This document shows positions 6,700 to 63,699 of a stretch of 64,000 bases of DNA, one piece after another. Location: assembly GCF_004010195.1 (NCBI RefSeq), contig NC_057751.1, positions 13,855,428 through 13,919,427 on the forward strand, written 5' to 3'. A program made the position numbers and the translations under genes. A model generated the notes under the pieces. The model was given only the letters and a program-made list of their open reading frames with translations. It was not told where the DNA came from and ran no database searches. This stretch comes from Chiloscyllium plagiosum. Its lineage: Eukaryota. Each line of letters starts with the position of its first letter. Position 1 is the stretch's first letter.

Positions 6700-7890
6700 C
6701 GAAGGATAAGTAGTTCTTGGCCTTTGACATTAGTAGATCTTTATTGCAGTTCCATAAATCCCCAAGGCCTGATTAGACGTAACCCAGGCTGCAGTGAAAG
6801 ACAAGGGAGGAGAGTGCTGAGGCCCTGCCGAGATACTTAGTACTTCACTGTCCACAGATGAAGTACCAGATGACAGGAGGATATGATTCCATTGTTCAAG
6901 AAAGGCAGCAGGGACAGGTCAGGTCGTTACCAACCAGTGAATCTGATGTCAGTACAATGGAAATTATTGGAAAACATTTGGAAGGATGGGACTAATCAAT
7001 ATTTTGTATAATTAGTAAGTTTGCAGATGACACAAAAATTGGTGTTGCTGTTGATAATGAGGAGGATGGTCTCAGGCTATAGCCTGATATTGATTGATCA
7101 GATTGTAAATTGGGCAGAGCAAAGGCAGTTGGGATTTAATCCTGGTAAGTGTGAGGTGATGTATTTTGGAAGGTCAAATAAGGGAAGGATATACATAATG
7201 AATGGGAGTACTGAGGAACAAAGAATCTTGGTGGACAAGTCCACAGATCCCTGAAGGTGTCAGCAAAGGTTGACTGGGTGATATAGAAGGTGTACAGGAT
7301 GCCTTCAGTGTCTTCATTCACTGGGATCTGGAATATAGGAATAACATTGGTCAGGAATAGATGGATGGAATACTGTGTGTAGTTCTGGTCACCACACAAT
7401 TGGTAGGACATGGTTGTACTGGAGAGAGTGCAGAGGCAATTTACCAGGATGCTGCCTGGATGGAAAGATGCAGTGATGGGGAGAAACTGGAGAAGCCGGA
7501 TTTGTTTTCCTTGAAGCAGAGGAGGCTGAGGGGAGAATTTGATTAAGATATACAAATTTATGAGAGGCATAAACAAGGTAGATCATAAGACTCTCTTCCA
7601 TAAGGCAGACGTATCTAAGACCAGAGGGTGTAAATTTAAGGTGAGGAGTAAGTGGTTCAGGCAGATCTGAGGGTGGTGGAAATGTGGAATGTGCTGCCTG
7701 AGAGGGTGGTCGAACAAGTACTCCTGCAACATTTAAGAAGCATCTGGATGAGTACTTCCAATTCCCAGGGCATAGTAGGCAATGCAGCAAGTACGGGTAA
7801 ATGGGACAAGTGTGGTTTGGTGTTTGTTGGTCAGCATAGTTCATGGTAGGCTGAAGAGCTTATTTCTAGGCTTCTGACTGTGTGACTCTG
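6700..7890 (+). mobile_element. CR1/HER1 LINE fragment with internal deletions
   Basis: Contains P.FKKGSRD..., SKFADDTK, NWAEQRQLGFNPGKCEVMYFGRSN and LFSLKQRRLRG, followed by a 3' tail. Confidence 0.88.
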
Positions 7891-10618: not shown

Positions 10619-11737
10619 TCAATTTTAAATTTGGCGAATCTGCACTGTCAGGGTACAGAGCAACTCGGTCATGACTATTGGCAAGCAACATTAGTTTAAG
10701 GACAGTTATGCCCTCTGGAAACTTGGTGCGCCAACCAAGGCTCTATCTTATCCTTTAGGGCTGAATGCACTTCCAACAACAGGAAGGGATTCCTTACTAC
10801 CAGCGATAAACTTTAAAAGAAACATGAGACAGCTACAGCTTCAGTGCTGGTTAATATCTTCTGACAACTGCGACAGTTCTACATGTATTTTTGTCCATTC
10901 CTTCTTGGGATGTGGTCATCGTTGACAAGGCCAGCATCCGTTGCCCATCCTTACTGACCTTGAGAATGTGGTGATGAACTAATGCAGTCCACGCTGAGTA
11001 GGTATACCCGTAGTGCTGTTGGGGAGAGTTCTGGGATTTTGACCCAGCAACAATGAAGGAGCTGTGATATAGTTCTAATTCAGGATGGTGAGCGGCTTGG
11101 AGGGGAGCATGCACAGAGTGATGTTCCCATGTACTGATTAGTTTTGGAAACTGCTGTTTGAGAGCCTCAGTGAATTTCTGTTGTTGGGAGAGAAAATGAG
11201 TGTTGAAAGTCTTAAGGTGGTGCCTTCTGTGGTCATTTCAAATTGTATAAGTTGAAGTTGTAACAGGCTACTGACTGAGTCATTGCTTCGAGGCTTCAAA
11301 GCTTTTCCACAAACTATTTCTTCCTGACATGACTGTACATTTGGTGATTTGTAGGGGAAAAAAAGCAGATATCTGATGTTCAGATATCCATCAAGGGCTT
11401 TCAATCTCAACACATAAGAAGCAATGCATAAAATGTTTGTTTTTCTGTAAGAGTGCCCTCACAGTGTGCCTGAACAGTGCCAGTTATTATAGTCATCTTG
11501 GAGCAGTGCAAGAACCAAATTACAAATGAAGATGATGCTAGGATGAATTTTGGTGCATTTACTTTCTCCCAGCCTGGAGCTGGGGACATTTGCAACCCCA
11601 CACAGTTTGCTGTCCACTGTTACATCAGAGATATTCCAGAGGTTCTTTGGCAGGAGTGTTTTCTTTGGATAACACAGCTGACGATGCAGAATGACATCGA
11701 TTCCAGTGGGACAAATAGGACCACAGATCAAATTCGG

Positions 11738-11868
11738 GTGGAGGTGGGTACTGCAGATGCTGGAGATCAGAGTCAAGATTAGAGTGGTGCTGGAAAAGCA
11801 CAGCAGGTCAGGCAGCATCCGAGGAGCAGGAAAATCAACGTTTTGGGCAAAAGCCCTTCATCAGGAAT
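11738..11868 (-). mobile_element. PLE family A terminal-repeat fragment with mutated hammerhead
   Basis: The minus strand reads CTGATGAAGGGCTTTTGCCCAAAACGTTG, so GAAA has become AAAA. It is followed by the family A repeat ending GCATCTGCAGTACCC. Confidence 0.8.
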
Positions 11869-13225: not shown

Positions 13226-14768
13226 CCACATCTTCACTGCTAGTCTCTAAAGTCCCAGGAAGGTGACACGAGTGTCAAGTTACAAAAAAAAAGTTTTAAA
13301 GTGCCAAGATCGAATAAAGTTGGGATCTACAAAAGGTAGCTAATTAGCACTTTGACCTGGAAACAATGCCCATGTGATTCATGCTGCCACGGAGATGGAG
13401 ATAGAGAATGGGAAGGGCTTCGTAGATATCCCTGACAACTCACAGATCAGGAAGAAAGTAAGGATATAATGGTTCACCATGCAGTAACGATGGTGGAAAA
13501 CTGTGTTTGAATTGAGAAGATTAACCAAGGATTTGAAACCAGGTTAGAAGATTTGCCAAGGGGAACCTTCACTGAAAGACAGTTCTTCAACTAAATGAAA
13601 GGAATGGAGATAAACACTCAGGAGTTCAGAATCATTATTAATGATGACTTAAGGGGCAGGATACCTGTGAAATGGGCTTCCAGTTGCGTTAAAAGAAAGA
13701 GTCAAATAATTTTTAAAAATCTTCTTGAGATTTTCATAAGAGCCATTTGTGGATTTCTCAATTTTGATTTTGGTCTCCAAGCCTTTTTTTTAATCATTTT
13801 CACAATCTCCTTATTTAGGTGATACCGTTCTGGAGTAACAATTGCTTTAGTATTGTTGTTGAGGTAAGAGCTATTTGGATTCATGGAGAAGGTGATTAAT
13901 CAGTATCCTCAATAGTCTTTACCACTTCATTAAACTCCATTAAATCACAACAGACACAAGAAACATTAATTTCTTCAAGACCACAGTGCTGAAGTTTCCA
14001 CAAGACAATTGATATTAGTTTGCAACACTTATTTTTAGAATTGACACATTGTTTTCACAGAAAAAGTCTTAACCATAAACACAATTTCTCTGGATTGATG
14101 AGGTCACAGCTGAATGGTTGTGTGTTTGTCACTATGCCTCAATTAACTGACGGTACATGACACACTTTGTGAAAAGTAGCCAACTGGACTTCAAACAAGC
14201 ACGGGAACTGGCTTCACCATTGGAAAATGTGGCAGGTGGAGCATATGGGGTGCAGGGTATTCCGATGCAAGTGGAGACCCCTTGCCAGTCCGACTGAGCT
14301 GGGGGAACACCACTTGAGTGGAGTCAATTGCAGAGCCTCATTCAGGACATATTCTAACCAGATGGACTCTAGGTCAGCCCACACTAAAACTATAAAACAA
14401 AGCCAAGCTTCAGCCAAATGGTTAAAATCTTCTTCAAGATTTGGGCCAGCAAACCATTGTAGTTACTCGAGGCAGCAAGCGAGTCCAACTCGATCTAAAT
14501 TGAGTAAGAGAACTCACAGGCCAGTATCCAGGAGAATGCATACACTGGAAAGTCCATCTACGTCTGGTTTGGAGCAGTTAAATTGCTTAGCAACATCCAA
14601 ATCACAACCAATCAAAATAAACGTCTGGTTAAATGGTCACCTGGTTCGAATAGAGGTTACCGACATTTCTATATTAGTGATCACAGAATGTGTCTTTAGT
14701 AAATTTGCTCTGGACTCCATTCATAAGTTTGCACAAGACTTTGCCAAGACAGAGAACTGAGACAAGGC

Positions 14769-14982
14769 AAAAGTGAGGACTGCAGATGCTGGAGAGAACA
14801 GTCAAGGTTAGTGTGGTGCTGGAAAAGCACAGCAGGTTAGGCAGCATCCGAGGAGCAGGAAAATCAACGTTTCGAGCAGAAGCCCTTCCTGATGAAGGGC
14901 TCATGCCCGAAACATTGATTTTCTTGCTCCTCGGATGCTGCCTAACCTGCTGTGCTTTTCCAGCACCACTCTTATCTTGACT
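14769..14982. mobile_element. PLE family A fold-back element inserted in the Gypsy pol
   Basis: Inverted arms at 14800-14888 and 14894-14982. Hammerhead motif CTGATGAAGGGCTCATGCCCGAAACATT starts at 14889. Confidence 0.88.
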
Positions 14983-15400
14983 GAGAACCTATACTGTCGA
15001 ATCTTTATAGATTAAGGGTACAATTTCAGTTCAGGGGATCTCTTATGAGAAGCAATTGGTTCAATTATTGATTACTGTAGTAAAAGGCTCAAGCCCAAAT
15101 CGATGGAGCAAAATTCATCGACAAAAATTCAACTGGCTTGGTGCAACATTTTTGAATTTAAAAACGGCTGCCTGAGTGATGTTCTAATTAATTACCAGGT
15201 AGTCTTTCAGGAAGATTAAGGGGCTATCAAAGGAGCCAAGGTCACGTCGCATGTTGACCAGGAAGCAATTGCATGCTTTTGCAAGGCTCACCCCTCAGTG
15301 CCATTTGCCTTATGGGCAAATATAGAGTCAGAAACCAGAAGGCTGGAAAGTGAAGGAATCATCAAACCAGTCCAGTTTGCAGAATGGGCAGCACAGGTTA

Positions 15401-15526
15401 TGAAGGGCTTTTGCCCGAAACATCGAATTTCCTGCTTCCCGGACGCTACCTGACCTGCTGTGCTTTTCCAGCACCTCTCTAATCTTGACTCTAATCTCCT
15501 GCATCTGCAGTACCCACTTCCACCTC
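15401..15526 (+). mobile_element. PLE family A terminal-repeat fragment in the Gypsy RT
   Basis: Begins inside the hammerhead (TGAAGGGCTTTTGCCCGAAACATC). Flanked by GCACAGGTTA and GCACAAGTTA, a 10-bp TSD with one mismatch. Confidence 0.85.
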
Positions 15527-16015
15527 GCACAAGTTATTTCGATTGTGAAGTCCAATGGATTGTTTCACTTTTGTGTGTATTTTAAACAAACAACAAATCA
15601 CTTTTTGCTGCTGGATAAATACCCAATCCCTCACGTAGAGGATTTATACACAAATCTGATAGGGGTCAGTACTTCATGAAGTTGGACTTGAGCTACGGAT
15701 ACTTGCAATTGCAGTTGGATGAGGACTCCCAGAAGTTCATAGAATCACTGAATCCCTACAGTGTGGAAACAGGCCATTCAGCCCAATAAGTCCACACCAA
15801 CCCTCTGAATATCAACCCACTCAGACCCATTCCCCTAACCTATTACTCTACATTTACCCCTGGATAATGTACCTAACCCACACATCCCTGAGCACTATGG
15901 GCAATTTCCCATGGCCAATTCACCTAATCTGTATGTCTTTGGATTGTGGGAGGAAACCTGAATACCCGGAGGAAACCCATGCAGACACGGGGAGAATGTG
16001 CAAACTCCACACAGG

Positions 16016-16785
16016 AAAAGTTAACGATCCAGGTTATAGTCCAATAAGTTTATTTGGTAGTACTAGCTTTCGGAGCACTGCTCCTTCATCAGGTGGTTGT
16101 GGAGGATAAGATTGGACGACACAGAATTTATAGCAAAAGTTTACAGTGAGATGCAACTGAAATTATATATTGAAAAAGACCTGGATTGTTTGTTATGTTT
16201 AGAATGACCATGTTGGTTTCAGTTCTTGCATATGTAAATCCCATAACATTTTTTTTGAAAGTTAAATTCTCAAGTAAGCTTGTGTGTATGTGTGTGTGGG
16301 GGGGAGAGAGAGAAAGAGAGTGAGTGTGTGCAATGCAGTGGGGTCACCTGTAGTGTGATATGAACCCAAGGTCCCAGTTGAGGCCAATCCCATGGGTACT
16401 GAACTTGGCTATCAGCCGCTGCTTGCCCACTTTGTGTTGTTGCCTGACCTGAAGTCCACCTTGAAGGACCCGAAGGTCCGAGATTGAATGTCCCAGTTTG
16501 CTGAAGTGTTCTCCGACTGTGAGGGAACTCTCCTGTCTGTTGATTGTTGTGTGGTGTCCATTCATCCTTTGCCATAGTCCCTGCTCAATCTCACCAATCT
16601 ATCAGGCCTCAGGGCATCCTTGCCTGTAGCGTATGAGAGAGACAATGTTGGCCAAGTCACACAAGTACCTATCACGTACATGGTGAGTGGTGTCTCCATG
16701 TGTAATGGTGGTGTCTGTATCAACACTTTGACATGTCTTGCAGCGTTGCAGGGTTGTATAGTATTGTCCTGAAAGCCAGGCAGTT
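16016..16785 (-). mobile_element. Penelope-like element family B: GIY-YIG endonuclease 3' part plus terminal repeat
   Basis: Reads CKTCQ...NIVSLIRYRQGCPEA..IGE..Q.L.QRMNGH...VGEHFSKLGHSISDL...LIAKFSTHGIGLNWDLGFISHY, followed by a repeat with a hammerhead. Confidence 0.9.
16061..16096 (-). ncRNA. Minimal hammerhead ribozyme motif (PLE family B), core intact
   Basis: CAC-CUGAUGA-A-GGAGC-AGU-GCUCC-GAAA-GCUA-GUA: core boxes, 5-bp stem II, palindromic AGCU and a CUA cleavage triplet. Confidence 0.75.
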
Positions 16786-19785: not shown

Positions 19786-20636
19786 GGTATGACCCAAGTG
19801 TTGTGTTCGGCCATTACTGTACGCCTAGAGGAACTGGCCAGACCAGTTAAGGTTAGCAGATCTATATCCTTGAAAGACATTGGATTTTTGCAAGAATGAT
19901 TGAGAGTTTCACTGTCACCATTTCAAAGACTACTTTTCAATTGCAGGTTTTATGAATTGAATTTAAATTCTAGCAGTCATGGTGTCCCCAGAACACAAGT
20001 CTGAGCCTCTGAAATATTTTTGCAGTCACATTAGCCTGATGTCACTGTCTCTGTCATTGTATTCAGTTTCACTCTTGCAACAATTGATGCTGAATATATT
20101 ACTTTTCAGACAATCTGTTTCAGGTTCTAATAATTTGCTGCGTGAAACAATGTTTCCTCATGTTCCCTATGTTTCTTGTGCCAGTCACCTTTTATCGGTA
20201 GCCTTTGTTTGTCAAACCTTCCGTCAATGCACTCTTAACTCATGTTCTGCATAAAATTAAATGAGATCTGGTAAAACAGAGTACAGTATTAATGTGCTCA
20301 GTTAATAGACTTAAGCAGGCAGAATTAATCTGATTGTCCATAAAAGAAAGATAACACCTTTCTCATGTAAGTGGTAATTATTAATCAACCAACATTCTGA
20401 AAATCCTCAGAAATGTACATCCAATTGATGCTCAAACTGAAAATTTCCATTTGGTGTAAAATCACAGAATAATTATAGTTGCTGGCCCTGCTTAAATGAT
20501 GAGGGGTCACTGACATTGAATTTCAGTTTTTCATGAGAAGATATTTTCTAATTTTCACTATTCCAAGGGTGTTGAGGTATTTATTTGTACCTCTTCTTCG
20601 TGATATCTAATGCAAATTTCCATTCCTCTTTACTGG

Positions 20637-20937
20637 GAGAAAGTGAGGACTGCAAGTGCTGGAGAGTCAGAGTTGAAAAGACAGGCCTTTTGTCTTACGT
20701 GTCTATCTTCCTTCCCATCTATCCACTCCACCATCCCCACCGTCCTATCCATCTGCATCCACCTATCGCCTTCCCATTTATCCTCTCCCCAGCTCCACCC
20801 CCGCCCCACCAATTTATCTCTCAGTCCCTTTCCCCCTCCATATTCCTGATGAAGGGCTTATGCCTGAAATGTCGACTCTCCCGCTCCTAGGATGCTGCCT
20901 GACTTGCTGTGCTTTTCCAGCACCACACTTTTCTTCA
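20637..20937 (+). mobile_element. PLE family A fragment with a short inverted end; hammerhead motif at 20846-20873
   Basis: A C-rich 3' region, then ATTC-CTGATGAAGGGCTTATGCCTGAAATGTC-GAC and the family A repeat. Confidence 0.82.
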
Positions 20938-21649
20938 CTGAAGCTAATACTGGACAGGTAGGATCCCTGAGTGAAACCTGGCCAGATGGACCCTAAATGA
21001 TTTTCGCAGTTTGGTTACCATGATACTCAGTCAATGAATGTATTTGTAAGAGGTTGTTGATGTACTCCTAGCAAAAGAGCGTACATTGTTAAACAGGTAA
21101 AGCAGATCTGCAAGCTTGGAATGATGTTATAAAGAGTAAAACAAAAAGTCAACCCTTTTTCCAAGCAATATCCTTCTGAAATACTCAATCCTTATGAGGT
21201 ACTACTTCACTTGTTCATTTTTATTGAGAAGTTCCTCATGGCAGTGCACTCACTAGATGTGATTCTCTCAATTACTGACTCTCCCCAAGACATATAGACA
21301 CATGCTAACTCAATGACCTTTCCTCACTGATTGCTCAAAGAACCTCAGAGCTTTTATTCAGTCCTTTCAACTTGGACTGATAACATAGTTTAACACATAC
21401 TTCCAGTATTAATGTCCTGGAAACATTTTTGAACTTCAATGGATTCACCCAGAGCTATGACAGCAATGGAGTTCCAGGTTTTGCCAGTGACTTTCAGGGC
21501 ATGGTGATATAGCTCCAAGTGAGGATTATATGTCCATTGAGGGAAACTTGTTGGTGGTGGTGTTCCTCTACATCTGCTACCCTGGTCCTTCTCACTGGGA
21601 GAGTCTGAAGATTTGTAAAATGCTGTCAAAGATGGCTTGAACATGATCC

Positions 21650-21831
21650 AGGAGAAAGTGAGGATTGCAGGTGTTGGAGATCAGAGTCGAAGAGTGTGGT
21701 GATGGAAAAGCACAGCCGGTCAGGCAGCATCCAAGGACCAGGCGAGTCGACGTTTCGGGCATCAGCCCTTCATCAGGAATGAGGGTGTTGCCTGACCGGA
21801 GTGTGCTTTTCCAGCACTACGCTCTTCGACT
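21650..21831. mobile_element. PLE family A fold-back element
   Basis: The arm AGAGTCGAAGAGTGTGGTGATGGAAAAGCACAGCCGGTCAGGCA is inverted at 21788-21831. Confidence 0.85.
21745..21780 (-). ncRNA. Minimal hammerhead ribozyme motif (PLE family A), core intact
   Basis: AUUC-CUGAUGA-A-GGGC-UGAU-GCCC-GAAA-CGUC-GAC: 4-bp stem II, palindromic ACGU and a GUC triplet. Confidence 0.78.
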
Positions 21832-21959
21832 TTGAAGATATTCACACTGCTATCACTGTGCACCGCGATGAGGGAGCAAATGTTAAGGTGGAGGATGGAT
21901 GTCGATCAAGTGGGCTGCTTTGCTGCAGAGACATTAACCAGAAAAGTTCACTCTCAGTT

Positions 21960-22556: not shown

Positions 22557-25500
22557 CGTTTATTCCACATGCAAATTACCCACTGTATGAAAAAGTTGTC
22601 TCTTGGGTCCCTTTTAAATTTTTCACCTCTCATCTTCAAAAGTATGCCCCCCCGGGGGGATCTAAGATGGCGGTGATCTGAGAAGATCACACTGCAGAGC
22701 TTCACATTGCAGCAGGAGCAGGACAGTCCTTTAACCCACCCAACCCAGGTCAACAGGATTTCTTGGGGCGTTAGAAAGATTGTGGAGCCCCAAGAAACAT
22801 TNNNNNNNNNNNNNNNNNNNNNNNNNNNNNNNNNNNNNNNNNNNNNNNNNNNNNNNNNNNNNNNNNNNNNNNNNNNNNNNNNNNNNNNNNNNNNNNNNNN
22901 NNNNNNNNNNNNNNNNNNNNNNNNNNNNNNNNNNNNNNNNNNNNNNNNNNNNNNNNNNNNNNNNNNNNNNNNNNNNNNNNNNNNNNNNNNNNNNNNNNNN
23001 NNNNNNNNNNNNNNNNNNNNNNNNNNNNNNNNNNNNNNNNNNNNNNNNNNNNNNNNNNNNNNNNNNNNNNNNNNNNNNNNNNNNNNNNNNNNNNNNNNNN
23101 NNNNNNNNNNNNNNNNNNNNNNNNNNNNNNNNNNNNNNNNNNNNNNNNNNNNNNNNNNNNNNNNNNNNNNNNNNNNNNNNNNNNNNNNNNNNNNNNNNNN
23201 NNNNNNNNNNNNNNNNNNNNNNNNNNNNNNNNNNNNNNNNNNNNNNNNNNNNNNNNNNNNNNNNNNNNNNNNNNNNNNNNNNNNNNNNNNNNNNNNNNNN
23301 NNNNNNNNNNNNNNNNNNNNNNNNNNNNNNNNNNNNNNNNNNNNNNNNNNNNNNNNNNNNNNNNNNNNNNNNNNNNNNNNNNNNNNNNNNNNNNNNNNNN
23401 NNNNNNNNNNNNNNNNNNNNNNNNNNNNNNNNNNNNNNNNNNNNNNNNNNNNNNNNNNNNNNNNNNNNNNNNNNNNNNNNNNNNNNNNNNNNNNNNNNNN
23501 NNNNNNNNNNNNNNNNNNNNNNNNNNNNNNNNNNNNNNNNNNNNNNNNNNNNNNNNNNNNNNNNNNNNNNNNNNNNNNNNNNNNNNNNNNNNNNNNNNNN
23601 NNNNNNNNNNNNNNNNNNNNNNNNNNNNNNNNNNNNNNNNNNNNNNNNNNNNNNNNNNNNNNNNNNNNNNNNNNNNNNNNNNNNNNNNNNNNNNNNNNNN
23701 NNNNNNNNNNNNNNNNNTGTAATTTGTATGACCAAGTGGATGATCTTGAAAACAGGGGCAGGAGAAAAAACATTCGGATCATCAATCTGCCTGAGGGTAA
23801 GGAGGGTGAGCGGCCTGCGGAATTTGTTGAAGATTGGCTTCCAAAATTCCTTGACTTGGAGACTGGCATGAGAGGATTGAAGATAGTGAGGGCTCACCAG
23901 GTCGAAGCATGGAGGTCGGGTCTGGGTCAATGCCCTTGTCCTTTCCTGGTGCGGTTCCATCATTACCGGGATAAGGAGAGAGTCATGGAGGCTTCCAGAC
24001 TCCAGGGGGAAGGATCCAAAGGCCCTAATTTATGAGGGGTCTAAGATCATGGTTTTTCAGGACTTTTCAGTGGCAGGGATCCAGAAACGAAAATCATATG
24101 ATGGTGTCAAGAGAAGATTGTAGGAGCTTGGGATTCAGTACACCTTGAGATATCCGGCAATGCTTCGGATCACCTTAGATGGATCCATGCATCTCTTTGA
24201 CACACCGTTGTTCCCCTTTTTTTTACCTCTATTGATAATAATTTGGTTCAAACTATGTCTGGCGGTGGTTAAGATGTACATTTTAAATTTCTAAGTTAGG
24301 ACATACCAAAGGATGGGTGGGGTATTTATTCCCCTTTTTTTTTATAAAAGAATGTTTTTTTATTCATATTGATATTCTATGGGGTGTTNNNNNNNNNNNN
24401 NNNNNNNNNNNNNNNNNNNNNNNNNNNNNNNNNNNNNNNNNNNNNNNNNNNNNNNNNNNNNNNNNNNNNNNNNNNNNNNNNNNNNNNNNNNNNNNNNNNN
24501 NNNNNNNNNNNNNNNNNNNNNNNNNNNNNNNNNNNNNNNNNNNNNNNNNNNNNNNNNNNNNNNNNNNNNNNNNNNNNNNNNNNNNNNNNNNNNNNNNNNN
24601 NNNNNNNNNNNNNNNNNNNNNNNNNNNNNNNNNNNNNNNNNNNNNNNNNNNNNNNNNNNNNNNNNNNNNNNNNNNNNNNNNNNNNNNNNNNNNNNNNNNN
24701 NNNNNNNNNNNNNNNNNNNNNNNNNNNNNNNNNNNNNNNNNNNNNNNNNNNNNNNNNNNNNNNNNNNNNNNNNNNNNNNNNNNNNNNNNNNNNNNNNNNN
24801 NNNNNNNNNNNNNNNNNNNNNNNNNNNNNNNNNNNNNNNNNNNNNNNNNNNNNNNNNNNNNNNNNNNNNNNNNNNNNNNNNNNNNNNNNNNNNNNNNNNN
24901 NNNNNNNNNNNNNNNNNNNNNNNNNNNNNNNNNNNNNNNNNNNNNNNNNNNNNNNNNNNNNNNNNNNNNNNNNNNNNNNNNNNNNNNNNNNNNNNNNNNN
25001 NNNNNNNNNNNNNNNNNNNNNNNNNNNNNNNNNNNNNNNNNNNNNNNNNNNNNNNNNNNNNNNNNNNNNNNNNCCAACCTACAGGTAGGGATTTCACGTT
25101 CTTCTCCAATCCGCATAGATGTCACACGAAGATTGATTTTTTTCTGACCCCTGCGGTAACCCTGGATCGGGTGGCATCCTGTACGATTGGTAATATTGCC
25201 ATCTCTGATCATGCTCCAGTGTACCTCATGGTTAAAATTAAGGATGTTACAGTGGATTCAAGGTACTGGCGAATGGACCCCTTTATTCTCATGGACAGCA
25301 AGTTTGTGGAGTATTTCTGTAGGGAATTTCGGGCATTCCTAGACATCAACATAGGCTCGGTTGATAGCTCATCTGTTCTCTGGGAAACTGCCAAAGCTTA
25401 TGCCAGAGGGTTAGTTATTTCATATTCCACAAGTAGGAAGAGGCAGAAATTTTTCAAAATTTTACACCTCTATATATGTTCATACATTCATATAGGAGGG

Positions 25501-26990
25501 TGGGTTGGGGAATTTCTTTTTATCATTTGGGTTTAGTTTTGTACTATTTTTGTACTGTTTTGAATTGCATTGTTTTGTATTTGTTGTAATATTTAGAAAT
25601 CTATTATTTCTTAATAAAAATATATTATAAAAAAAAATGCCCCCTTGTTTTAAATCTCTAATCCTATGGAAAAGACCTTAGCTGTTCATGTTACCTATGC
25701 CCTTCAGGATTCTATAAAACACTCCAAGGTCACCCCTCAATCTCCTGTGCGCCTGTGAAAAAAGTCCCAGCCAATCCAGCCTCTACTTGTGACTCAGATC
25801 CTCCAGTCCCAGCAACAGGCTTGGAAATCTTTTCTGAACCCTCTCCAATTTAATAACATACCTCTTGTAGCAGAGAGATCAGAACTGTGCAAAGTGCACC
25901 AAATGTGGCCTTACCAGTGTCCTGTACAACCTAAACATGACATCCCAACTGCTGTACTCAAAGGTCTGACCATTGATGGCAAGCGTGCTAAATGCGTTCC
26001 GAATCACGCGACCTACCTGTGACACACCTTTCAAAGAGCTATGTAACTGAACCCTGGGGGCTTTCTGATCAACAATACAACCCAGGGCCCTACTACTAAT
26101 TTTATAAGGAGAAAGTAAGGCCAGCAGATGATTTTGCCCGAAACATTGATTCTCCTGCTCCTCGGATGCCGCCTGACCTGCTGTGCTTTTCCAGCTCCAC
26201 ACTCTTGACATTAAGTCCTATCTTTGTTTGTTTTCCCAAAATTTAATACCATGCATTTATCCAAAGTAAACTTCTCAGCTCATTGGCCCAATTGATCAAG
26301 ATCCCTTTGTAACATTAGATAACATTTTTCCCTGTCCTCTGTGCCACCAATCTTGGTGTCCTCCACAAAATTACTAACTATGCCTCCTGTGTTTTCATCC
26401 AGATCATTTACATAAATGAGAAACAATAGCAAAACACAACTGGTCACAGGCCTCCCAGTCTGAAAATGAACCTTCCACCACCACAACCCTCTGTCTCCGA
26501 CCATCAAGCCACTTTTGTATTCAATTGGCAAGCTCTGCCTGAAACCCACATGATCAATCTTTACTCACCACTCTGCCATGAGGAACACTGTCAAAGGCTT
26601 TACTAAAGTCCATGTCGTCAATATCTGCCCTCTTCGATTTTTTTGGTCACATACTCAAAAAAACTCAATCAAATTTGTGAGGCACCATTTCCCATGCACA
26701 AAGCCACACTGACTGCCCCTAATCAGTCCTCACCTCTCCAAATGCATGGAATCCTATCGATCAGAATCCCCTCCAACAACTTCCCACCACCGAAGTCAGA
26801 CACACTGGCTTATTATTCCCAGGATTCTCCTTACTGCCTTTCCGAAACAAAGGCACAACATTAGCTTCCCTCCAGTCCTCCACAATGTCCTGGGATACTC
26901 TTAACCATTCTATCCACCTTTATGTTTTTTAAGACCTCCAGCACCTCCTCTTCTGTCAGGTGGATGCTAAATTTCTCTTGACTATATTCC
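22557..26990 (-). mobile_element. CR1/HER1 LINE (RT and 3' region) interrupted by an L1 and a PLE fragment (~26107-26210)
   Basis: Reads LLFLIYVNDLDE...NFVEDTKIGG, LQRDLDQLG and LYRTLVRPHL. The sequence is continuous across the L1 insertion. Confidence 0.85.
22654..25636 (+). mobile_element. L1 with complete 5' end and poly(A) but no RT domain (two assembly gaps inside)
   Basis: Starts GGGGGGATCTAAGATGGCGG. ORF1 reads LENRGRRKNIRIINLPEG. ORF2 EN end reads FTFFSNPHRCHTKIDFF, ISDHAPV, WRMDP and WETAKAYARG. AATAAA and an A tail follow. TSD ATGCCCCC at 22644-22651 and 25637-25644. Confidence 0.88.
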
Positions 26991-27740: not shown

Positions 27741-28099
27741 TATAAGATCATAGAATCATAGAAACATGACAGTGTGGAGGTAGGCCATTTGGCCCATTGC
27801 ATACACACCGATTCCCCTGAAGAGCATCCCACCCAGACCCAAAACCATCCCCTATCCCCTGTAACCCTGCAAGAATACAAGAATTAGCTTTGTTGTTACA
27901 TGAGAACGGTAAAACATTTACAAGTTGCCATCTTAGATCCTAAAGCCCTGTGTACAGATTTTCCACGAGAAATTCTTAGGAAAAGAATTTTTAAAATAAT
28001 GAAATGAAAAGTCCAGCAATAGATTAGAAAAACAGAGAAATTAGAGGTCAGAATAACAGTCCTTGCAACACAGACCGTGTTGGGCTTCTCCTTCATGGA

Positions 28100-28818
28100 T
28101 CGAGTCGATGCTGAGACCAGGAGTCTGAGTCCATGCTGAGGCCGGGAGTTCGAGTCCACACTGAGGCAGGGAGTGTGAGTCTGCACTGAGGCCAGGAGTC
28201 CGAGTCCACGCTGAGACCGGGAGTTCATGTCCACACTGAGGCCGGGAGTTCGAGTCCGCGCTGGGACTGGGAGTTCGCTTCCACGCTGAGGCTGGGAGTT
28301 TGCATCCATGCTGAGGCCGGGAGTCCGAATCCACGCTGAGGCCGGGAGTTCATGTCCACACTGAGGCCGGGAGTTCGAGTCCGCGCTGGGACTGGGAGTT
28401 CGCTTCCACGCTGAGGCTGGGAGTTTGCATCCATGCTGAGGCCGGGAGTCCGAATCCACGCTGAGGCCGGGAGTTCATGTCCACACTGAGGCCGGGAGTT
28501 CGAGTCCGCGCTGGGACTGGGAGTTCGCTTCCACGCTGAGGCTGGGAGTTTGCATCCATGCTGAGGCCGGGAGTCCGAATCCACGCTGAGGCCGGGAGTT
28601 CATGTCCACACTGAGGCCGGGAGTTCGAGTCCGCGCTGGGACTGGGAGTTCGCTTCCACGCTGAGGCTGGGAGTTTGCATCCATGCTGAGGCCGGGAGTC
28701 CGAATCCACGCTGAGGCCGGGAGTTCATGTCCACACTGAGGCCGGGAGTTCGAGTCCGCGCTGGGACTGGGAGTTCGCTTCCACGCTGAGGCTGGGAGTT
28801 TGCATCCATGCTGAGGCC
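28100..28818. repeat. 25-bp minisatellite organised as a 125-bp (5-monomer) higher-order repeat
   Basis: Monomers follow CTG(A/G)G(G/A)C(C/T)GGGAGT-N11 in a fixed cycle of five. The ORF track repeats at 125-bp offsets (28459, 28584, 28709). Confidence 0.97.
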
Positions 28819-30597
28819 AGGGCCTTTTTGCAGCAGACAAATTCAGAGCTAGCGACAATTTTGTAATCTACATTCAGAACATTGAATCAGCTGACTGTTG
28901 TCATACCTTTTCTTCACTGAATTTGACAGCAGTTCACAAGAAGGCAGAGGTTTCCAATAATTGGGGGTATCCGCATTAAATAAATAAAAAGTCATCAAGT
29001 TGTTTCAATAGGCTTTCGAGTATGAATGCAAAACTAACAAAGCAAATCCTTCCAGTTACGTTCTGATGAGGAGTCACATTCAAACAGGAACCTACTTATC
29101 ATCTCATCTCTTCGACGCTGATCAAGCAACCATCTACATCAATTATATGCTCTTCTTAAAACTTTCAAACACAAGGCTTATTGTGATTGTGATATTCAGA
29201 GGCAAAGTGGTTATTTGTAATAACACCACTCGGTCCATAAAATATCTTTGATGAAATGGCCAAGAAAGAAGAGCAAGTTTTGGCCAAAGTTTCTCTTTTG
29301 GTTCAATTATTCAGGTTTCTTTATACTGCTCTCATGAATATAAAACATCTACAAAAGCTTGCTTTGCTGGAACAGGCATGCAAACATTTATTTCCTGCCT
29401 GGCTTCAGTCTCAGTTTCCAGAGTATTATGTCCTTTATATCCCTTCACTCACAACTAATATCATTCTTCAAAGTTTTTCTTGAATATCAATTTTTCTTTG
29501 GTACATGCTATCAAAGCACAATCTTTTGCTATTGCAGAAATACATTGTGAACAAATTTCATATTTTTGGAACTCAACTTGACACTGCAGTTCATTGACAA
29601 AGAGGCCACATCACAATAACAGCACTAAGTCGTCGAGATGGAAACTGTGTTGACTTTTTTTTAAGCCACTTAAGTCAAATTGGGTCTTTATTCCCATCTC
29701 TCAATTCTGTTTCTGTAATTAGAGAATTGCTCATCCAAAATCAGTTTATGAACTCACATCAATGTTACCTCAAAAGGACATTCCAATCAGCCTTGAAGAA
29801 AAAATATTTAATACATATGCATACCCCAGAAATCTCCTGTGATGAATTTGTTTAAAGCTGATATATAGCCGTTTACTGATTACATAATTTATTTGTGGTT
29901 CAAAATGAAAGAAATATAACTTTGCTGCTTCAAATGTATGTGCAGCAAAAACTGTGGTGGCTGAAGAAGACAGCTCACGTTGCACCACTCGAGCAATTGA
30001 TGATAGAAAATAAAATTTGACCATGCCAGTGAATATAAAAATGACCAGGAACACTTGAATGATTAGCTCTCTCTCCTCCTTCAAGTCTTCCACTTCAGTG
30101 GGCGAGCAGCATTTACTCTAACCATTCAAAGGTCAGGCATTGCTTATTCTTGAACTTAATTAGTCTAAAACTGTTTACTTCTCCAATGATTTAACATTCT
30201 TCGCATCTACCCTCTGGTGGTCCAGCAGTTTATAATCCTACCCTCCAACAATCTAGAGTTTTGTATTTCTTTGCTCAAAAGGTCCAGTAATCTTGACACA
30301 AATCCTCCAGCCAGCCTGATTAGCTGTCAGACATTTCTGTCAGATATTCCAATTGATCTTACTGCCTATTGCTGACAATGTAAAATCCCAGTGTAAATAA
30401 TTAATTTTTTCCTTGTAATCCACCACTCAACCAATTATTTAATGCAACAATCACTGTCAGTTTCGGTAGTTTTCCTTTGAATTTATGCTTAAGGTATGTA
30501 TGATATTGAAAAAGACACACTTGCTTCCCATTCCAGGTTATGTTGAGTAAGTGGAGGCTGGCTTTTATCTAAAATGATTGACGTTTTGTAAATACGA

Positions 30598-31024
30598 CTG
30601 GAAAAATGTGGTGCTGGAAAAACACAGCAGGCCAGGCAGTATCCGAGGAGCAGGAGAATCGACGTTTCGGGCATAACCCCTTCTTCAGGACTGAGGAAAG
30701 TGTGTCCAGCAGGCTAAGATAAAAGGTAGGGAGGAGGGACTTGGGGGAGGGGCGTTGGAAATGNNNNNNNNNNNNNNNNNNNNNNNNNNNNNNNNNNNNN
30801 NNNNNNNNNNNNNNNNNNNNNNNNNNNNNNNNNNNNNNNNNNNACAAGGGATGAATGTAGATTTCTCCAGCTTCCTCATTTCCCCTCCCCCCACCTTATC
30901 TAGTCCCAACCCTCGGACTCAGCACCGCCTTCTTGACCTGCGATCTTCTTCCCGACCTCTCCGCCCCCACCCCCTCTTCAGCCTATCACCCTCATCTCCA
31001 GCATCTGCAGTCCTCACTTTCTCC
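30598..31024. mobile_element. PLE family A inverted fragment pair spanning a gap
   Basis: The left part is a minus-strand terminal repeat with a hammerhead. The right part is the plus-strand ORF end QGMNVDFSSF followed by CCAGCATCTGCAGTCCTCACTTTCTCC. Confidence 0.82.
30657..30692 (-). ncRNA. Minimal hammerhead ribozyme motif, core intact
   Basis: AGUC-CUGAAGA-A-GGG-GUUAUG-CCC-GAAA-CGUC-GAUU. AGUC/GAUU can form a 4-bp stem I. Confidence 0.72.
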
Positions 31025-31147: not shown

Positions 31148-31640
31148 GATGGCACCAGGGTCCCAGGTTCGATTCTAGCCTTGAGCGACTCTGTGTGGAG
31201 TTTGCATATTCTCCCCGCGTCTGCGTGGGTTTCCTCTGGGTGCTCTGGTTTCCTCCCACAGTCCAAAGATGTGCAGGTCAGGTGCATTGGCCACGCTAAA
31301 TTGCCCGTAGTGTTAGGTGCATTAGTGAGAGGGAAATGGGTCTGGGTGGGTTACTCTTTGGAAGGTTGGTGTGGACTTGCTGGGCTGTCGGGAATCTAAT
31401 CTAATCGCATACCAGAAAAACCATCCCAAATGCAACCCTGTTATAATTATGACTATCTCCACCGATAGTGTTAGGTGCATTAGTGAGAGGGAAATGGGTC
31501 TGGGTGGGTTACTCTTTGGAAGGTTAGTGTGGACTTGTTGGGCTGAAGGACCTGTTTCCACACTGTCGGAATCTAATCTAATCGCATACCAGAAAAACCA
31601 TCCCAAATGCAACCCTGTTATAATTATGACTATCTCCACC
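31148..31640 (+). mobile_element. HE1-type SINE with a tandem duplication of its 3' part plus flank
   Basis: B box and V core are present. The duplicated units are 31308-31463 and 31466-31640. Confidence 0.88.
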
Positions 31641-37689: not shown

Positions 37690-38340
37690 GAGGAGCATGT
37701 AGGTAGTCTGATTAGGAAGTTTGTCGATGGTACAAAGTTAGGCAGAGCTGCATATAGCACAGAAGATTGCTAGAGGATTTAGTAGGGAGATAGGAGGCTA
37801 GATACTCGGGTGGAGAAATGGCAGATGGAGTTTAATCCTGAAAAATGTGAGGTGATGCATTTTGGAAAGTCTAATACAGGAGGGAAATACACACTCAATG
37901 GCAGAGCCCTCGGGAGCATCACCATAGAGAAGGATATGGGCATCCCGGTCCACTGTTCCCTGAAAGTGTGACATAAGTGGATAAGGTGGTTAAGAAGGCA
38001 TATAGCATGCTTACCTTCATCAGGCGGGACATAGACTATAAAAATTGGCAAGTCATGTTGTAGCTGTAGACTAATTTAGTTCTGCAACATGAGGAATATT
38101 GTGCCATCACACTACGAGAATGATGTGGAGGCTTTAGAGAGGTTACAGAAACAGTTTACCAGGACGTTGCCGGGTTTGGAGGATATTAGCTATGAGGAGA
38201 GGTTGGACAAACTCAGTTTGTTTTCACTTGAATGTTAGAGGCTGAGGGGCGACCTGATAGAAGTTGACAAAATCATGAGAGAGACAGATAGAGTGGATAG
38301 TCGAAGTTTTTTTCCCATGGTAAAAATGTCAGTTACTGGA
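37690..38340 (+). mobile_element. CR1/HER1 RT 3' fragment
   Basis: EKWQMEFNPEKCEVMHFGKSN and YEERLDKLSLFSLEC*RLRGDLIEV. Confidence 0.88.
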
Positions 38341-38656: not shown

Positions 38657-38865
38657 TCAGGTAGGGTCAAAATGAGGAAACTGGTGAAGTCCACATTGAT
38701 GCCCTGGGGTTGAAGTGTTCCGAGGTGGAAGATGAGGCGTTCTTCCTCCAGGCTTTGGGAGGTGAGGGAGCAGCGGTGAAGGAGGCCCATGACCTGCATG
38801 TCCTTGGCAGAGTGGGAGGGAGAGTTGAAATGTTGGGCCACAGGGCAGTCGGGTTGATTGGCCTG
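38657..38865 (-). mobile_element. PLE family A GIY-YIG C-terminal fragment
   Basis: VAQHFNSPSHSAKDMQVMGLL...LEEERLIFHLGTLQPQGINVDFTSF. Confidence 0.85.
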
Positions 38866-40019
38866 TATCTATGCTGTAATGTTCTTTTTTCTTAGTTGTG
38901 TCTTTGTCATGAGAAATGTAGTGCTGGGTTTGCTCTTGGAAACACACTAATTACAGATACATCTGTGGACTTCTTGCTGGAGTAGCTGCTACCTGGAGTG
39001 GCAAGGAAGCACATTAAGACATGAAGATTTCATGGTATGGCAACAATCATTGCACTGAGAAGAGGCGGCTTGATCCCAACGTTGTGTCCAAATAATTGTA
39101 CAGAAATTGCAGAACTCGGGGGTGATCACAGCTCTAAGGAAGGGCGAGTGATGAAGAAAGATCTCAACAGGCAAGTCTGTGTCCAGGCATGATCCACAGA
39201 TGGTGACAGGTTCCTCACTCAATTGTGCAGCAGATCTGTAACCCTCAAAAACTATCAAAATCAGCAGACACCAAAAACAAGGAAGAAAATTGTTGGTCAT
39301 TTACTATAACAATGAAGCTTTCTTCAGCAAAGGCAGTTCCTATTTGGAGAAAAGGTAGCCTCAGGCAAGTGAAAATGCAGAATGCTTTTTTATTTTTCAC
39401 TTTGAAAGTGACCAACTGTTTCATCCTCACTGATTTCAAAGCCTTCCACCAATGTTGTTAAGGAAGACTTGAACTCTGATCATCGTCTGAAGGTGATAAT
39501 TCAGCAAAAGGCTTACAGTGTCCTACTGTCATGTTGAAAAGAGGCCCCAAGGCCAGCAGAATGGCCTCAACTTCTTTTGGCTGGTACTACCCATCTAGAA
39601 AACCCATCACATTACTTTCCAGCCCAAACTAGTCACACGCGTGGCCACTGCAAAGAGGAGGGTCATTAGTGGACCACCACACAGAACGTTAGCATGCAAA
39701 AAGAAGACTGCCACCAGCTAATCAAAACTTATGAACAAAGAAAAGTTCAAATGTAGTGTACTCAGCTCCACAGTAGTAAATGTTCGATAAAGGGAATAGA
39801 GGTTCTTTCAGATGACAGATGACAGTTGTGATTTCAATTTGAAGACTGTTCAAAATATTCACTGCCTCTCTGCTGTTCAACGTCACTATCCGTTGTTCTT
39901 CAGTACACCTTGCAGGCTGCAGAAGGATGATATCCACAACACAGTCGCTTTACATAAATACAAAATTCAACTGGGATCACGCAGTACAGTGGTAGTTTTA
40001 GCGATATTATGATTTAAGA

Positions 40020-44493: not shown

Positions 44494-44580
44494 GAAGGGC
44501 TCATGCCCGAAACGTCGATTCTCCTGCTCCTTGGATGCTGCCTGACCTGCTGCGCTTTTCCAGCAACACATTTTCAGCTC
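44494..44580 (+). mobile_element. PLE family A terminal-repeat fragment starting inside the hammerhead
   Basis: GAAGGGCTCATGCCCGAAACGTCGATTCTCCTGCTCC... Confidence 0.82.
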
Positions 44581-46499
44581 GTTTCGGATTTGGACAGAGT
44601 AAAGAAAAGAGCTTAGAGGAGACAGATCTGATTATTCTTGGTTCTATTGGTATCAATAGTAATGTAGGTCACAGTCATGTAATCTGCAAATAGATCCAGA
44701 AACGCAGTGAACTTTCACCTTTTTTGACCAACAAGACCCTTTGAGGTAGACTATAAGCTCGAAATCCGAAACTTTACTTTGACTTTGGGTTTGAAGGAAC
44801 CAACAACCAATATGATGGAAACAGAGGACACTTGCCACAGTGTGGTCAGTAATGATGTCCAGCACTATTTCTAAATGGTGCCAATGAAGAGGAATTAGAA
44901 CTTCGACTTTCAAGAGGAAAACAGGGAAAATAATGTGAGTGACCTAGAAAAGTTCAAGTAAAATTGGTTCCTTCAAGACTTCAAGAAAAAAAATCTCCTG
45001 CTTCCAAAGAATAATCCCTCAAAACAGTTAAGAATACAGATGAAGCAAAAATGAACCTCCGCATAACATTCTAGATTGAGTAAGTAAGTTGAGTTCAATC
45101 ATGGGATGCAGGCCTTACTGGTTAAGTCAACAGTTTGTCTGGAGAAGATGGTGGTGAGCAGCGGGAGTTCCAGAAGTTTGGCCAAAAGACAGTGAAGGGA
45201 TAGTGATATGGCAGCAAGTCAGGATGATGTGTTGCTTGGCAGGGAACTTGCAGGTGGTGCTGTTACTATCCGAGGATGCCCTTCAAGGGGTGGGGGGGAG
45301 AGGTTATGTGTTACAGTGTGATGTCACAGTCGACTTGGTGAGTTACTGCAGTGCATCTTGTTGATGGTAAACACTACTGCTGAGTATCAGTGGTGGAGGC
45401 AGTGAATGTGTTGAAGATGGCAGATGGAGTGCCAATCAAACAGGCCTCCTTGTCCTGGATGGTATAACACTTTATGAGTGTTGTTGGAATGCACTGATCT
45501 AGGCAAGTGCGGAGTATTCCATCGTACTCCTGACTTGTACCTTGTAGATGGTGGACAGGCTTTGGGGAGTCAGCAGGTGAATAATTTAGTCCAGAATTCC
45601 CAGTCTCTAAATTTCTGTCTTTGAAGCCACAGTATTTAAATGCCTGATACAGTTCAGTTTCTGGGGAATGGTAACTCCAGGATATTGGGAATGGGGGAAT
45701 TCAGCAATGATCATGCCTTGAACATTTCAAGACAATGGCTAGCTTCTCCCTCCTTGGAGGCGATCATGAGTATGATTATTGTCTGTAGCTTGTTAGCCCC
45801 AGCCTGGATATTGTTAAGGTATTGTTGAAAATGAACCCCAGAGGACGTCTTCACTACCTGAGGAGTTGTGAATGGTATTGAACATTGTTCAGTCATCACG
45901 GAACATCCCCACTTAAGACTTTATCATCCATGGAAAGTAGCAGCTGAGGATAGTCTTAGACAGATTCAGTGGCCCACAGGGGGAGGAGAATACCCAAAAT
46001 ATTTAAGAAGTTGAAGTAATGCATTTGTCTACTCCAATATAAAGGTCGATGCAGATTGAGAAAAAAAAATTCCATTCAAACAAATTGGAGATTGTTGCAT
46101 ACAACCCCATCAAAGGCTTTGTTGAGCAGAGGTGAACAATGTGTGGAGAGCCTGAAAAGAAAACAAATCATCTGCTCTGGCAGGAACCAAACTGACAGCT
46201 ATAAAGAATAATGTCACAAAACTCCTCTATGAAAGATACACAAGAGTTTAAAGATCTTGCCATTTTAGAGCGAATACAGACCATCAGGAAGACAATCCAA
46301 GTACCTATCAAACTTCTATTCTTCCAAGCCCTAAGAGATTACATTTGGAGATTATTGAAATCTCCAGATTGTCTGAATTTGTGAAGCCAGAGATTGGGGA
46401 GCAGGAGCGTTGGGAGTGATGGGAGATGAGGTTGTGGTCAATAGGAAATATATAAATTTTATGCAACTAATTATGAGGCAAAATGAAGACCAGGTTGGA

Positions 46500-48359: not shown

Positions 48360-49190
48360 AAAATTGATTTCGACAGTTTAGGAGAGTGGTCCAGGAAGTG
48401 GCTGATGAAATTCAATGAGAGCAAATGCACGATCTTGCACTTTGGAAAAAAGAATACAGGCATGGACTATTTTCTAAATGGCAAGAAAATTCATAAAGCT
48501 GAAGTACAAAGGGATCTGGGAGTGCTAGTCCAGGCTTCTCTAAGGGTCGACTTGCAGGTTGAGTCTGTGGTTAAGAAAGTGTATGTAATGTCATTTATCT
48601 CAAGAGGTCTGGAATTTCAAAGCAGCGATATGTTTCTGAGACTTCATAAAGTTCTAGTTAGGCTCCACTTAGAATACTGTGTCCAATTTTGGGCCCCACA
48701 CCTCAGGAGGGACATGCTAGCACTGGAACGTGTCCAGCGGAGATTCACACAGATGATCCCTGGAATGGTCGGCCTAACGTACAATGAATGGCTAAGGATC
48801 CTGGGATTGTATTCATTAGAGTTAGAAGGTTGAGGGGATATCTACTAGAAGCTTACAAGATAATGCATGGATTAGAAAGGATGGACGCTGGGAAGTTGTT
48901 TCCGTCAGGCGAGGAGACTAGGACCCGTGGGCACAACCTGAGAATTAGAGTGGGTCAATTTAGAACAGAAATGGTGGGCCTGTGGAATTCATTGCCACGG
49001 AATGCAGTGGAGGCCAGGACGTTAAATGCCTTCAAGGAAGAGATTGATAAATTCTTGATCTTGCAAGGAATGAAGGACTACGGGGAGAGTGTGGGTAAGT
49101 GGAGTTGAAATGCCCATCAGCCATGGTTAAATGGCGGAGTTGGCTCGATGGGCTGAATGGCCTTACTTCCACTCCTATGTCTTATGGTCT
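48360..49190 (+). mobile_element. CR1 LINE 3' fragment
   Basis: KWLMKFNESKCTILHFG, RDLGVLV, LVRLHLEYCVQFWAPH, LERVQRRFT and WNSLP, with a TCTTATGGTCTT tail. Confidence 0.92.
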
Positions 49191-53047: not shown

Positions 53048-53249
53048 AGAAGTACTGCAGATGCTGGAAGTCAGAGTCAATAAATGTGAAGCTGGAAAAA
53101 CACAGCAGGTCAGACAGCATCCGAGGAGCAGGCAAGTCAACATTTCAGAGTCCTATTGAAGGGTTTCACCTGAAACGTTGACTTGCCTGCTCCTCGAATA
53201 CTGTCTATCTACTAGGTTTTTCCAGCTTCACATCTATTGACTCTGACTT
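53048..53249. mobile_element. PLE family A-related fold-back element with a degenerate hammerhead
   Basis: Inverted arms from 53068 (AAGTCAGAGTCAATA) to 53249 (TATTGACTCTGACTT). The centre reads TGAAGGGTTTCACCTGAAACGTT. Confidence 0.82.
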
Positions 53250-55506: not shown

Positions 55507-55757
55507 TTAAAAATCACACAACACCAGATTATAGTCCAACAGGTTGATTTGGAAGCACTTGCATCCGAAGCGCTGCTCCTTCATCAGGTGGCTGTGGAGT
55601 GTAAGATCAAAAGACTTCACAACTTCACAACCACCTGATGAAGGAGTAGCGCTCTGAAAGCTAGTGTGCTTCCAAATAAACCTGTTGGCCTATAACCTGG
55701 TGTTGTTTGATTTTTAACTTTGTATACCCGAGTCCAACACCGGCGCCTCCAAATCAT
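55507..55757. mobile_element. PLE family B fold-back element with a hammerhead motif on each arm
   Basis: Arms at 55507-55597 and ~55626-55717. The plus arm reads CAC-CTGATGA-AGGAGTAGCGCTCT-GAAA-GCTA-GTG (55632-55667). The minus-arm copy has lost GAAA. Confidence 0.88.
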
Positions 55758-56159
55758 GTTTTTTCTTGTCATCAAGGGTTTCTTTTAATATGGTGTTTTC
55801 CCAACTTGCTTACCATCGCTTACCAGCGAGAGTGGAATTGTGCCAGTTGTGTTAGAATATGGTGATAAGGTGTACTGTAGAATAAAATGTTCTTGTAATT
55901 CGCAATCCTAAATATATTTATAGACAAGCAAAGTTCCATTTTCATTGGTTATGGTAATTCTTTTTCTTTATTCAGGGGATGTAAGCATTGCTGAGAGCTT
56001 TGGAAAGGTATTTATGAACTCTATTTCTTGAACCGTTGTAGTACATGCAAACTCAGGGGTGAGGTTTCTGAGTTGTGGGAGCGAGTCTTAGTAGGCTCAA
56101 ATTTGCTACTGGGTACAGCCCAGAAGGGGCAAAATTATTTCCCCAGGGCTGACAAAATT

Positions 56160-63611: not shown

Positions 63612-63699
63612 CTATGATCTGCCTATACTGCTCACAAACAAAGCTTTTCACTGTGTGTAGGTATACATGACAATAAATCAAATAAAAACGTATTGTATT

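Follow-up and report, generated by a model that had tools for sequence, protein, structure and literature searches.

A well-preserved, probably inert minimal hammerhead motif in a high-copy Penelope-like repeat of Chiloscyllium plagiosum

On the minus strand of the 64,000-nt stretch of Chiloscyllium plagiosum DNA that we analysed (hereafter the window), positions 21780-21745 form a minimal type I hammerhead motif in which every core base is present. It is very likely that this copy (the 21765 copy) is a well-preserved, probably inert minimal hammerhead within a 5'-truncated, head-to-head insertion of a high-copy Penelope-like element (PLE), most likely of the Neptune clade. Hammerheads in Penelope-like repeats were already described as a class in 2014, and this copy is one more case.

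The motif and its place in a Penelope-like repeat

The motif at 21745..21780 was identified by reading the sequence and by a descriptor search. Stem I (21780-21777/21748-21745) encloses the core bases C3-A9 (21776-21770), a bulged A at 21769 (the unpaired base between 9 and 10.1), and a stem II of 4 bp with a 4-nt loop (21768-21765/21760-21757), which includes the G10.1-C11.1 pair (G 21768 with C 21757). These are followed by G12-A15.1 (21756-21753) and C15.2-G16.2-U16.1-C17 (21752-21749), and the core pattern CUGANGA...GAAA...UH is matched at 21776-21770, 21756-21753 and 21750-21749. The motif has no helix III; positions 15.1-16.1 instead form the self-complementary palindrome ACGU (21753-21750). 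On re-reading, the minus-strand letters, the core, stem II, ACGU and a cut position at 21749/21748 were all as given in the first-pass annotation. Stem I is imperfect, with three of four pairs and one U.C mismatch, and this mismatch is U.U in 87% of the family depth (run X1, same species). Three of four pairs is also the state of the family majority, and stem I is fully paired (4/4) in the copies at 30657 and 53153.

We searched the window with a minimal-hammerhead descriptor that combined the core, a stem II of at least 4 bp, pairing ability at 15.2-16.2 and no more than one mismatch in stem I. This resulted in three motifs, at 21745-21780 (-), 20842-20877 (+) and, in a second repeat family (family B), 55631-55667 (+); none of 300 dinucleotide shuffles contained any. 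With just the loose core pattern, the window had five matches against a shuffle mean of 1.28. The hammerhead model search that had been proposed for this DNA thus gave a divided answer in the window: the descriptor was positive, whereas an Rfam scan contained no hammerhead model among 12 matches up to E = 10. Rfam also returned microRNA-like matches at 53114-53204 and 55536-55688; these are hairpins of the elements, score far below the gathering scores and were rejected. The missing Rfam hammerhead match and the imperfect stem I are what a chance resemblance to a hammerhead would predict. Yet no shuffle yielded any motif, two unrelated repeat families of the window have the same architecture, and a PLE terminal repeat is the expected location, so chance is almost certainly not the explanation.

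The motif lies in the long arm of its insertion (21651..21784, -), which is 5'-truncated, starts about 4 nt before stem I and ends in a 30-nt tail (21651..21680, -) found on this arm only. Many contigs and reads end at the edge of this arm (21650/21651). Head to head with it lies a short inverted arm without a tail (21785..21835, +), a copy of about 21682-21731. At 21839, the right edge of the insertion, contigs of three species carry an extra A, and the window has either a one-base deletion variant or an error.

By BLAST, local self-alignment and alignment, the family to which this insertion belongs (family A) comprises nine insertions with 15 arms in the 62,319 called bases of the window. 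Six of the nine are two-armed and head to head, and in all six the tail is on one arm only and the other arm stops about 30 nt earlier. Target duplications matched at 13/13, 12/13, 10/11 and 8/9 positions in four insertions; a fifth has a 6-bp duplication, and none was established for the other four, including the 21765 insertion. This two-armed anatomy and the match to published features bear out the earlier placement, in the terminal repeat of a PLE, of a minimal type I hammerhead that has a palindrome and no helix III.

From its sequence, family A reads as the terminal-repeat end of a Penelope-like element, with an indirect link to the reading frame through a short segment. This segment (30845-30881), inside the 13-bp duplication of one insertion, is 37 nt long and 81% identical to 38670-38706 (blastn E-value of 2e-4; tblastn E-value of 2e-4 for a 600-nt search space and 0.13 against the whole window). 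A separate GIY-YIG C-terminal remnant at 38669..38868 (-) bridges it to the PLE frame. The remnant is 75% identical (E-value of 3e-22) to P0157, a predicted bamboo-shark protein with a reverse transcriptase and GIY-YIG, whose RVT_1 and GIY-YIG matches are under the Pfam cut-offs. P0157 carries a C-x4-CxxC linker, which was read in this relative, the corresponding part of family A lying outside the window. A CX2-5CxxC linker before the endonuclease marks the Neptune clade, according to the excerpted text of PMC8557442, and the family A element is probably a member of that clade.

Other searches for the parent element were negative within their scope. The 62-aa frame at 30845, used as a protein query, had no match among 218 candidates, Pfam detected nothing in the endonuclease remnants of the window itself, no full-length pLTR-ORF-pLTR copy of family A lies within the window, and exact-pattern scans of viral and metagenome contigs identified zero loci. 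PLE endonuclease pieces also occur inside two database proteins, one named as a shark PPP1R12A-like isoform (P0003) and one as a skate neuromedin-U receptor (P0159), which represents exonisation or a gene-model error.

Copies, decay and age of the family

Eleven of the 15 family A arms hold at least part of the hammerhead motif. The core and a pairable palindrome are kept in only three of these (the 21765, 30657 and 20846 copies), so of the nine sites at which the motif had been listed as recurring, all belong to the repeat family but an intact motif is the exception. The 30657 copy (30657-30692, -) has an intact core, a fully paired stem I and a stem II of 3 bp, which is below the 4 bp of the descriptor and was therefore missed. 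It is the hammerhead arm of a two-arm insertion within a perfect 13-bp target duplication (30595..31023), in which an N gap is followed by a plus-strand arm with the last GIY-YIG codons (30845-30881) and the tail. In this tailed arm, the tail directly adjoins sequence from behind the frame end, and the part copied into the other arm is missing; it looks as if both primers had used one RNA, the join being hidden by the 80-base N gap. The 20846 copy belongs to a two-arm insertion (20636..20931) with a 45-nt tail arm (-) and a long arm (+), flanked by a 9-bp duplication with one mismatch. The long arm contains about 160 nt of upstream repeat and the motif at 20842-20877, with an intact core and two G.U pairs, and is antisense to the 21765 copy.

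The motif is damaged in the remaining arms. In five it is 5'-truncated internally (15401, 26130, 44494 and the reverse arms 14870 and 53140). The single-arm copies at 15402..15526 (+) and 44496..44585 (+) start at G8 and at G8/A9, with target duplications of 11 and 13 bp, respectively, each with one mismatch, and the two-arm insertion at 26108..26211 consists of a 23-nt tail arm and an arm starting in loop II. Two further insertions are two-armed. That at 14770..14983 is head to head and joined at the 5' half of the hammerhead, and the palindrome of its forward motif (14886-14920; the 14889 copy) is broken; that at 53056..53249 is a hairpin in which the forward motif (the 53153 copy) has changes at G5 and A6 and one compensated stem II pair. 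A single-arm copy at 11736..11868 (-), with a 6-bp flanking repeat, starts exactly at stem I and carries G12A (the 11850 copy) and U17. It had been put forward as a natural catalytic control, for which it is poorly suited: its G12A is a CpG change, and position 17, loop II and stem I differ as well. Two of the nine insertions lie in a region (14173-15700) whose frames resemble a decayed gag-pol remnant, presumably of the Gypsy type.

Most of the changes in the motif are CpG decay. The family A motif holds three CpGs, and 15 of the 33 motif CpG cells are now TG or CA. The rate of CpG change inside the motif (15/33) compared with that downstream (3/11; p = 0.48, with low power and with arms of one insertion treated as independent although they are not) gives no sign that the motif is protected. 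Non-CpG core cells were changed in 2 of 87 cases against 38 of 472 downstream (p = 0.07, after hand correction of the 53153 register), a lower rate that fits selection in the parents and is compatible with selection in the copies. The reported loop variants of stem II are real, and pairing is kept in 35 of 36 cells in the nine arms with a whole stem (counted by hand, 53153 register corrected). This mostly reflects unchanged cells, together with three C-to-T changes that gave G.U pairs, one broken pair and one double change that compensates. Some U17 copies may be a subfamily rather than decay, judging from the loose-end consensus. After insertion, copies would decay without selection, chiefly at the three CpGs, and the 21765 copy would have escaped those changes.

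Better evidence for past selection comes from family B, with motifs at 16056-16096 (-) and 55631-55667 (+). Family B shares the core of family A but has other sequences in both stems and in the palindrome, which reads AGCU where family A has ACGU. Because the core is kept with different, compensated helices and a different palindrome, the parents were probably selected for the fold. In the family B copy at 16056-16748 (-), a broken GIY-YIG end that retains a CxxC remnant matches a shark protein at 73% identity, and a minimal hammerhead with a 5-bp stem II and the AGCU palindrome lies about 250 nt beyond this end. A second family B insertion (55507-55767) consists of two arms placed head to head, each bearing a hammerhead; one side has a tail of about 40 nt, and the 12-bp target duplication contains one mismatch.

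We aligned contigs and reads from three DNA runs (the same species and organisms B and C) to 21000-21900 at 84% likeness to determine the age and abundance of the insertion. Contigs of B and C span the unique left flank and continue into the element, with 25 differences in 691 letters and 38 in 702, respectively, and other contigs of both cover the short arm and the right flank. The 21765 insertion is therefore common to the three species and older than their divergence. The same-species run had 44,169 aligned contigs, nearly all of them on the element, and the summed depth at the motif positions was 2.3-3.5 x 10^5 times the single-copy depth, a ratio that is not a copy number. The density in the window, 144 family A insertions per Mb, extrapolates over 2,800 Mb to about 4 x 10^5 if the window is typical. 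Family A thus probably has on the order of 10^5 arms genome-wide, by extrapolation. The very large family anticipated by the first-pass annotation agrees with both depth and density, with the qualification that only a minority of arms carry an intact motif.

The window is rich in other repeats. A tandem array at 27979-28903 has 25-bp units with a higher-order similarity of 125 bp. Frames at 778-1245 and 23718-25533, the latter around two N gaps, resemble ORF1 and endonuclease remnants of what we assume to be LINE-1; neither had a Pfam match. Decayed LINE reverse-transcriptase pieces, which we take to be CR1-like, were detected by tblastn with P0145 at 6898-7466, 25789-26844, 37795-38105, 48366-48767, 56929-57216, 61123-61227 and 63691-63870. 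Finally, two SINE-like repeat pieces of 80 bp at 31308-31545, 98% identical and 158 bp apart, are a recent local duplication or an assembly slip.

Possible cleavage and the proposed making of the copies

Folding predictions suggest that the 21765 copy is inactive as a monomer, as the 5' core strand pairs with the palindrome and the cut site in its best fold; folding programs do not model the hammerhead core. The pair probability of stem I was at most 0.025 in all six contexts folded. That of stem II was 0.93-1.0 in local folds and fell to 0 once the 20846 antisense copy was included; this copy (20842-20941) is 86% complementary and lies 739 nt from the 21765 copy. The palindrome duplex contributes only -3.1 kcal/mol. 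We also analysed RNA reads amounting to about 2% of one poly(A) single-cell run, in which fragmentation hides the ends. Within this sample, 2,738 reads fell on the family A repeat, on both strands. None of these had at least 99% identity to the window copy, no reads fell on 23 bins of unique flank outside the repeat, and RNA ends did not pile up at the cut or elsewhere. RNA depth 5' and 3' of the cut was 703/829 (0.848) on one strand and 427/498 (0.857) on the other (p = 0.90, a value that treats reads as independent, which they are not).

These results bear on the proposal, made in the first-pass annotation, that intact copies cleave host pre-mRNAs, alone or as same-strand dimers, and so burden or regulate host genes. 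The three arms that keep core and palindrome would be consistent with it, as would the position of the 21765 and 30657 copies, both on the minus strand, 8.9 kb apart and with their palindromes kept, and the family RNA on both strands. Retrozymes are, moreover, under-represented in Xenopus introns, going by the excerpts of bioRxiv 10.64898/2026.07.22.740005. Against this, a search of 247 stop-free frames of at least 65 aa, in which short exons are missed, detected no host exon, with five weak matches that were all under the Pfam cut-offs. In our sample no RNA reads fell on the flanks and none reached 99% identity to the copy, depth showed no strand-specific loss across the cut, and the predicted monomer fold, the antisense masking and the weak palindrome duplex all argue for an inert motif. 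Work on other species points the same way as far as the excerpted accounts go: published metazoan minimal hammerheads were inactive as monomers and weak as dimers (PMC4209133), the motif of an anole element cuts only with its protein (PMC11167929), and eight of nine Xenopus dimers did not cut (bioRxiv 10.64898/2026.07.22.740005). The RNA results leave slow or tissue-specific cleavage possible and lend no support to cleavage of host RNA, which we regard as very unlikely.

Cleavage within the life cycle of the element is a separate matter, and one that is compatible with our preferred account of the 21765 copy itself. The pseudo-LTR motif of the parent element would, like its published relatives, cut slowly, and only as a dimer or bound to the protein of the element. 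With the help of the protein, it could cut a share of the element transcripts, and some arms could have been copied from cut RNA. Selection of the parents for the fold, as suggested by the compensated helices and palindrome of family B, and the protein-assisted cleavage of the anole element (PMC11167929, in excerpt) are consistent with this. In all three species, some contigs (10, 11 and 8 in the three DNA runs) contain inverted joints in which one of the arms stops at 21742, 6 nt beyond the cut, and because the 21765 copy differs from the family at 21743 and 21746, these arms might really end at the cut. Conversely, none of the 15 arms in the window starts at the cut, and in the excerpts of PMC11167929 the anole motif was dispensable for insertion in vitro, catalytic mutants having shown normal insertion, and RNA-seq reads had no ends at its cut. 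Cutting of element transcripts is thus possible, although we consider it somewhat unlikely. Most copies were made from uncut or re-joined RNA, since summed DNA depth on the 5' side of the cut (3.47e6 at 21763) is not below that on the 3' side (2.30e6 at 21746) and no arm in the window starts there.

The starts of nine of the 11 motif-bearing arms, and of the longest arm in seven of the nine insertions, fall in a zone that extends from about 4 nt before stem I to G12. Under a best-case exponential truncation model, this clustering (9 of 14 arms of at least 30 nt) has p = 6.5e-5, with a zone chosen after looking, a 23-nt arm left out and arms that are not independent. Eight of the nine opposite-strand joints among the 15 joints listed (of 71) have one end at 21776-21788, where it should be noted that the family sequence of this stretch ends near 21786, so longer arms cannot show as joints. 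In addition, 225 RNA reads diverge from the stretch at 21780 and continue into a variety of flanking sequences. Two subfamilies have a pyrimidine run and then AG just upstream of stem I, a possible splice acceptor, and an intron in D. virilis extends from 46 bp past the start to helix I, according to the excerpted PMC4209133. We infer that the clustering would be explained if transcripts began or were spliced at stem I, or if synthesis halted at the folded motif. The common starts, the RNA reads leaving at 21780 and the inverted joints could also mean that the short copies derive from their own SINE- or retrozyme-like master of about 130 nt, starting at the hammerhead and mobilised in trans. 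This is improbable, as start points vary over about 30 nt among copies, two of the nine insertions reach well upstream, one of them into the reading-frame end, and the window contains no tandem monomers. Also rather unlikely, if less so, is a role in transposition in which the hammerhead serves as a landmark and not for cutting; the palindrome may then hold two RNAs together in a dimeric enzyme complex, each nick priming on its own RNA and the arms becoming joined head to head at the motif. A literature search outside subscription journals and Repbase found no paper on such a role.

Our preferred account of the 21765 copy remains a probably inert motif in a truncated PLE insertion. In the proposed sequence of events, the arm anatomy is observed and the steps are modelled on the anole element. 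The enzyme of the element would nick both target strands, and reverse transcription would start at two internal sites of the RNA, separated by about 30 nt and lying about 65 and about 97 nt past the cut, one start giving the tailed arm and the other the tail-less arm. Synthesis would have run through the cut position on uncut or re-joined templates and usually stopped in the 5' half of the motif. The family offers perhaps 10^5 dated stubs, of which a histogram of 5' ends could show whether cut RNA is copied. The same stubs bear on why synthesis stops at the ribozyme and on what PLE hammerheads are for, and the size of the family allows a well-powered test of intron strand bias for the host cost of intact motifs.

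Comparison with known hammerhead-bearing elements

The closest match is the minimal hammerhead of PLE pseudo-LTRs, as described in the available part of PMC4209133. Both have the type I core without helix III, the bulged base between 9 and 10.1, the G10.1-C11.1 pair, palindromic positions 15.2-16.2 and a short helix I (4-5 bp in the published motifs), and both occur mostly as dispersed single motifs of truncated elements with some close opposite-strand pairs. They differ in helix II, which has 4 bp here and 7-8 bp in S. mansoni, and in helix I, which is mismatched here, unlike the published motif. The extrapolated load here probably exceeds the roughly 4,000 motifs of coelacanth and the 9,000 of X. 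tropicalis given there. The main account, whose supplementary alignment may include a shark, names no cartilaginous fish among the hosts.

Animal non-LTR retrozymes (bioRxiv 10.64898/2026.07.22.740005, in excerpt), which were found in one chondrichthyan, likewise have type I hammerheads from PLE terminal repeats. Retrozymes form tandem arrays, whereas family A copies are dispersed, single or head to head, and have their own target duplications. In the window, tandem hammerhead units are absent, the nearest same-strand family A copies being 508 nt apart with unrelated DNA between them.

In the Poseidon element PAc of Anolis carolinensis, as excerpted from PMC11167929, the hammerhead lies about 100 nt upstream of two internal, tail-defining starts, as it does in family A. 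The two arm ends of family A fit the two internal reverse-transcription starts of that element. The two are also alike in nicking of both strands, AT-rich targets, uncut RNA as template and the absence of RNA-seq ends at the cleavage site. Unlike PAc, family A probably belongs to Neptune, any activity of its motif is putative, and the clustering of 5' ends at the motif, seen in family A, is not reported for PAc in that text.

Finally, family A resembles the EN+ PLEs, as described in the available parts of PMC8557442 and PMC3846280, in its frequent 5' truncation, the inverted truncated copy at the 5' end, the 30-40-bp tail at one end and target duplications of about 8-13 bp. Unlike in those elements, nearly every copy here is a stub of 90-300 bp.
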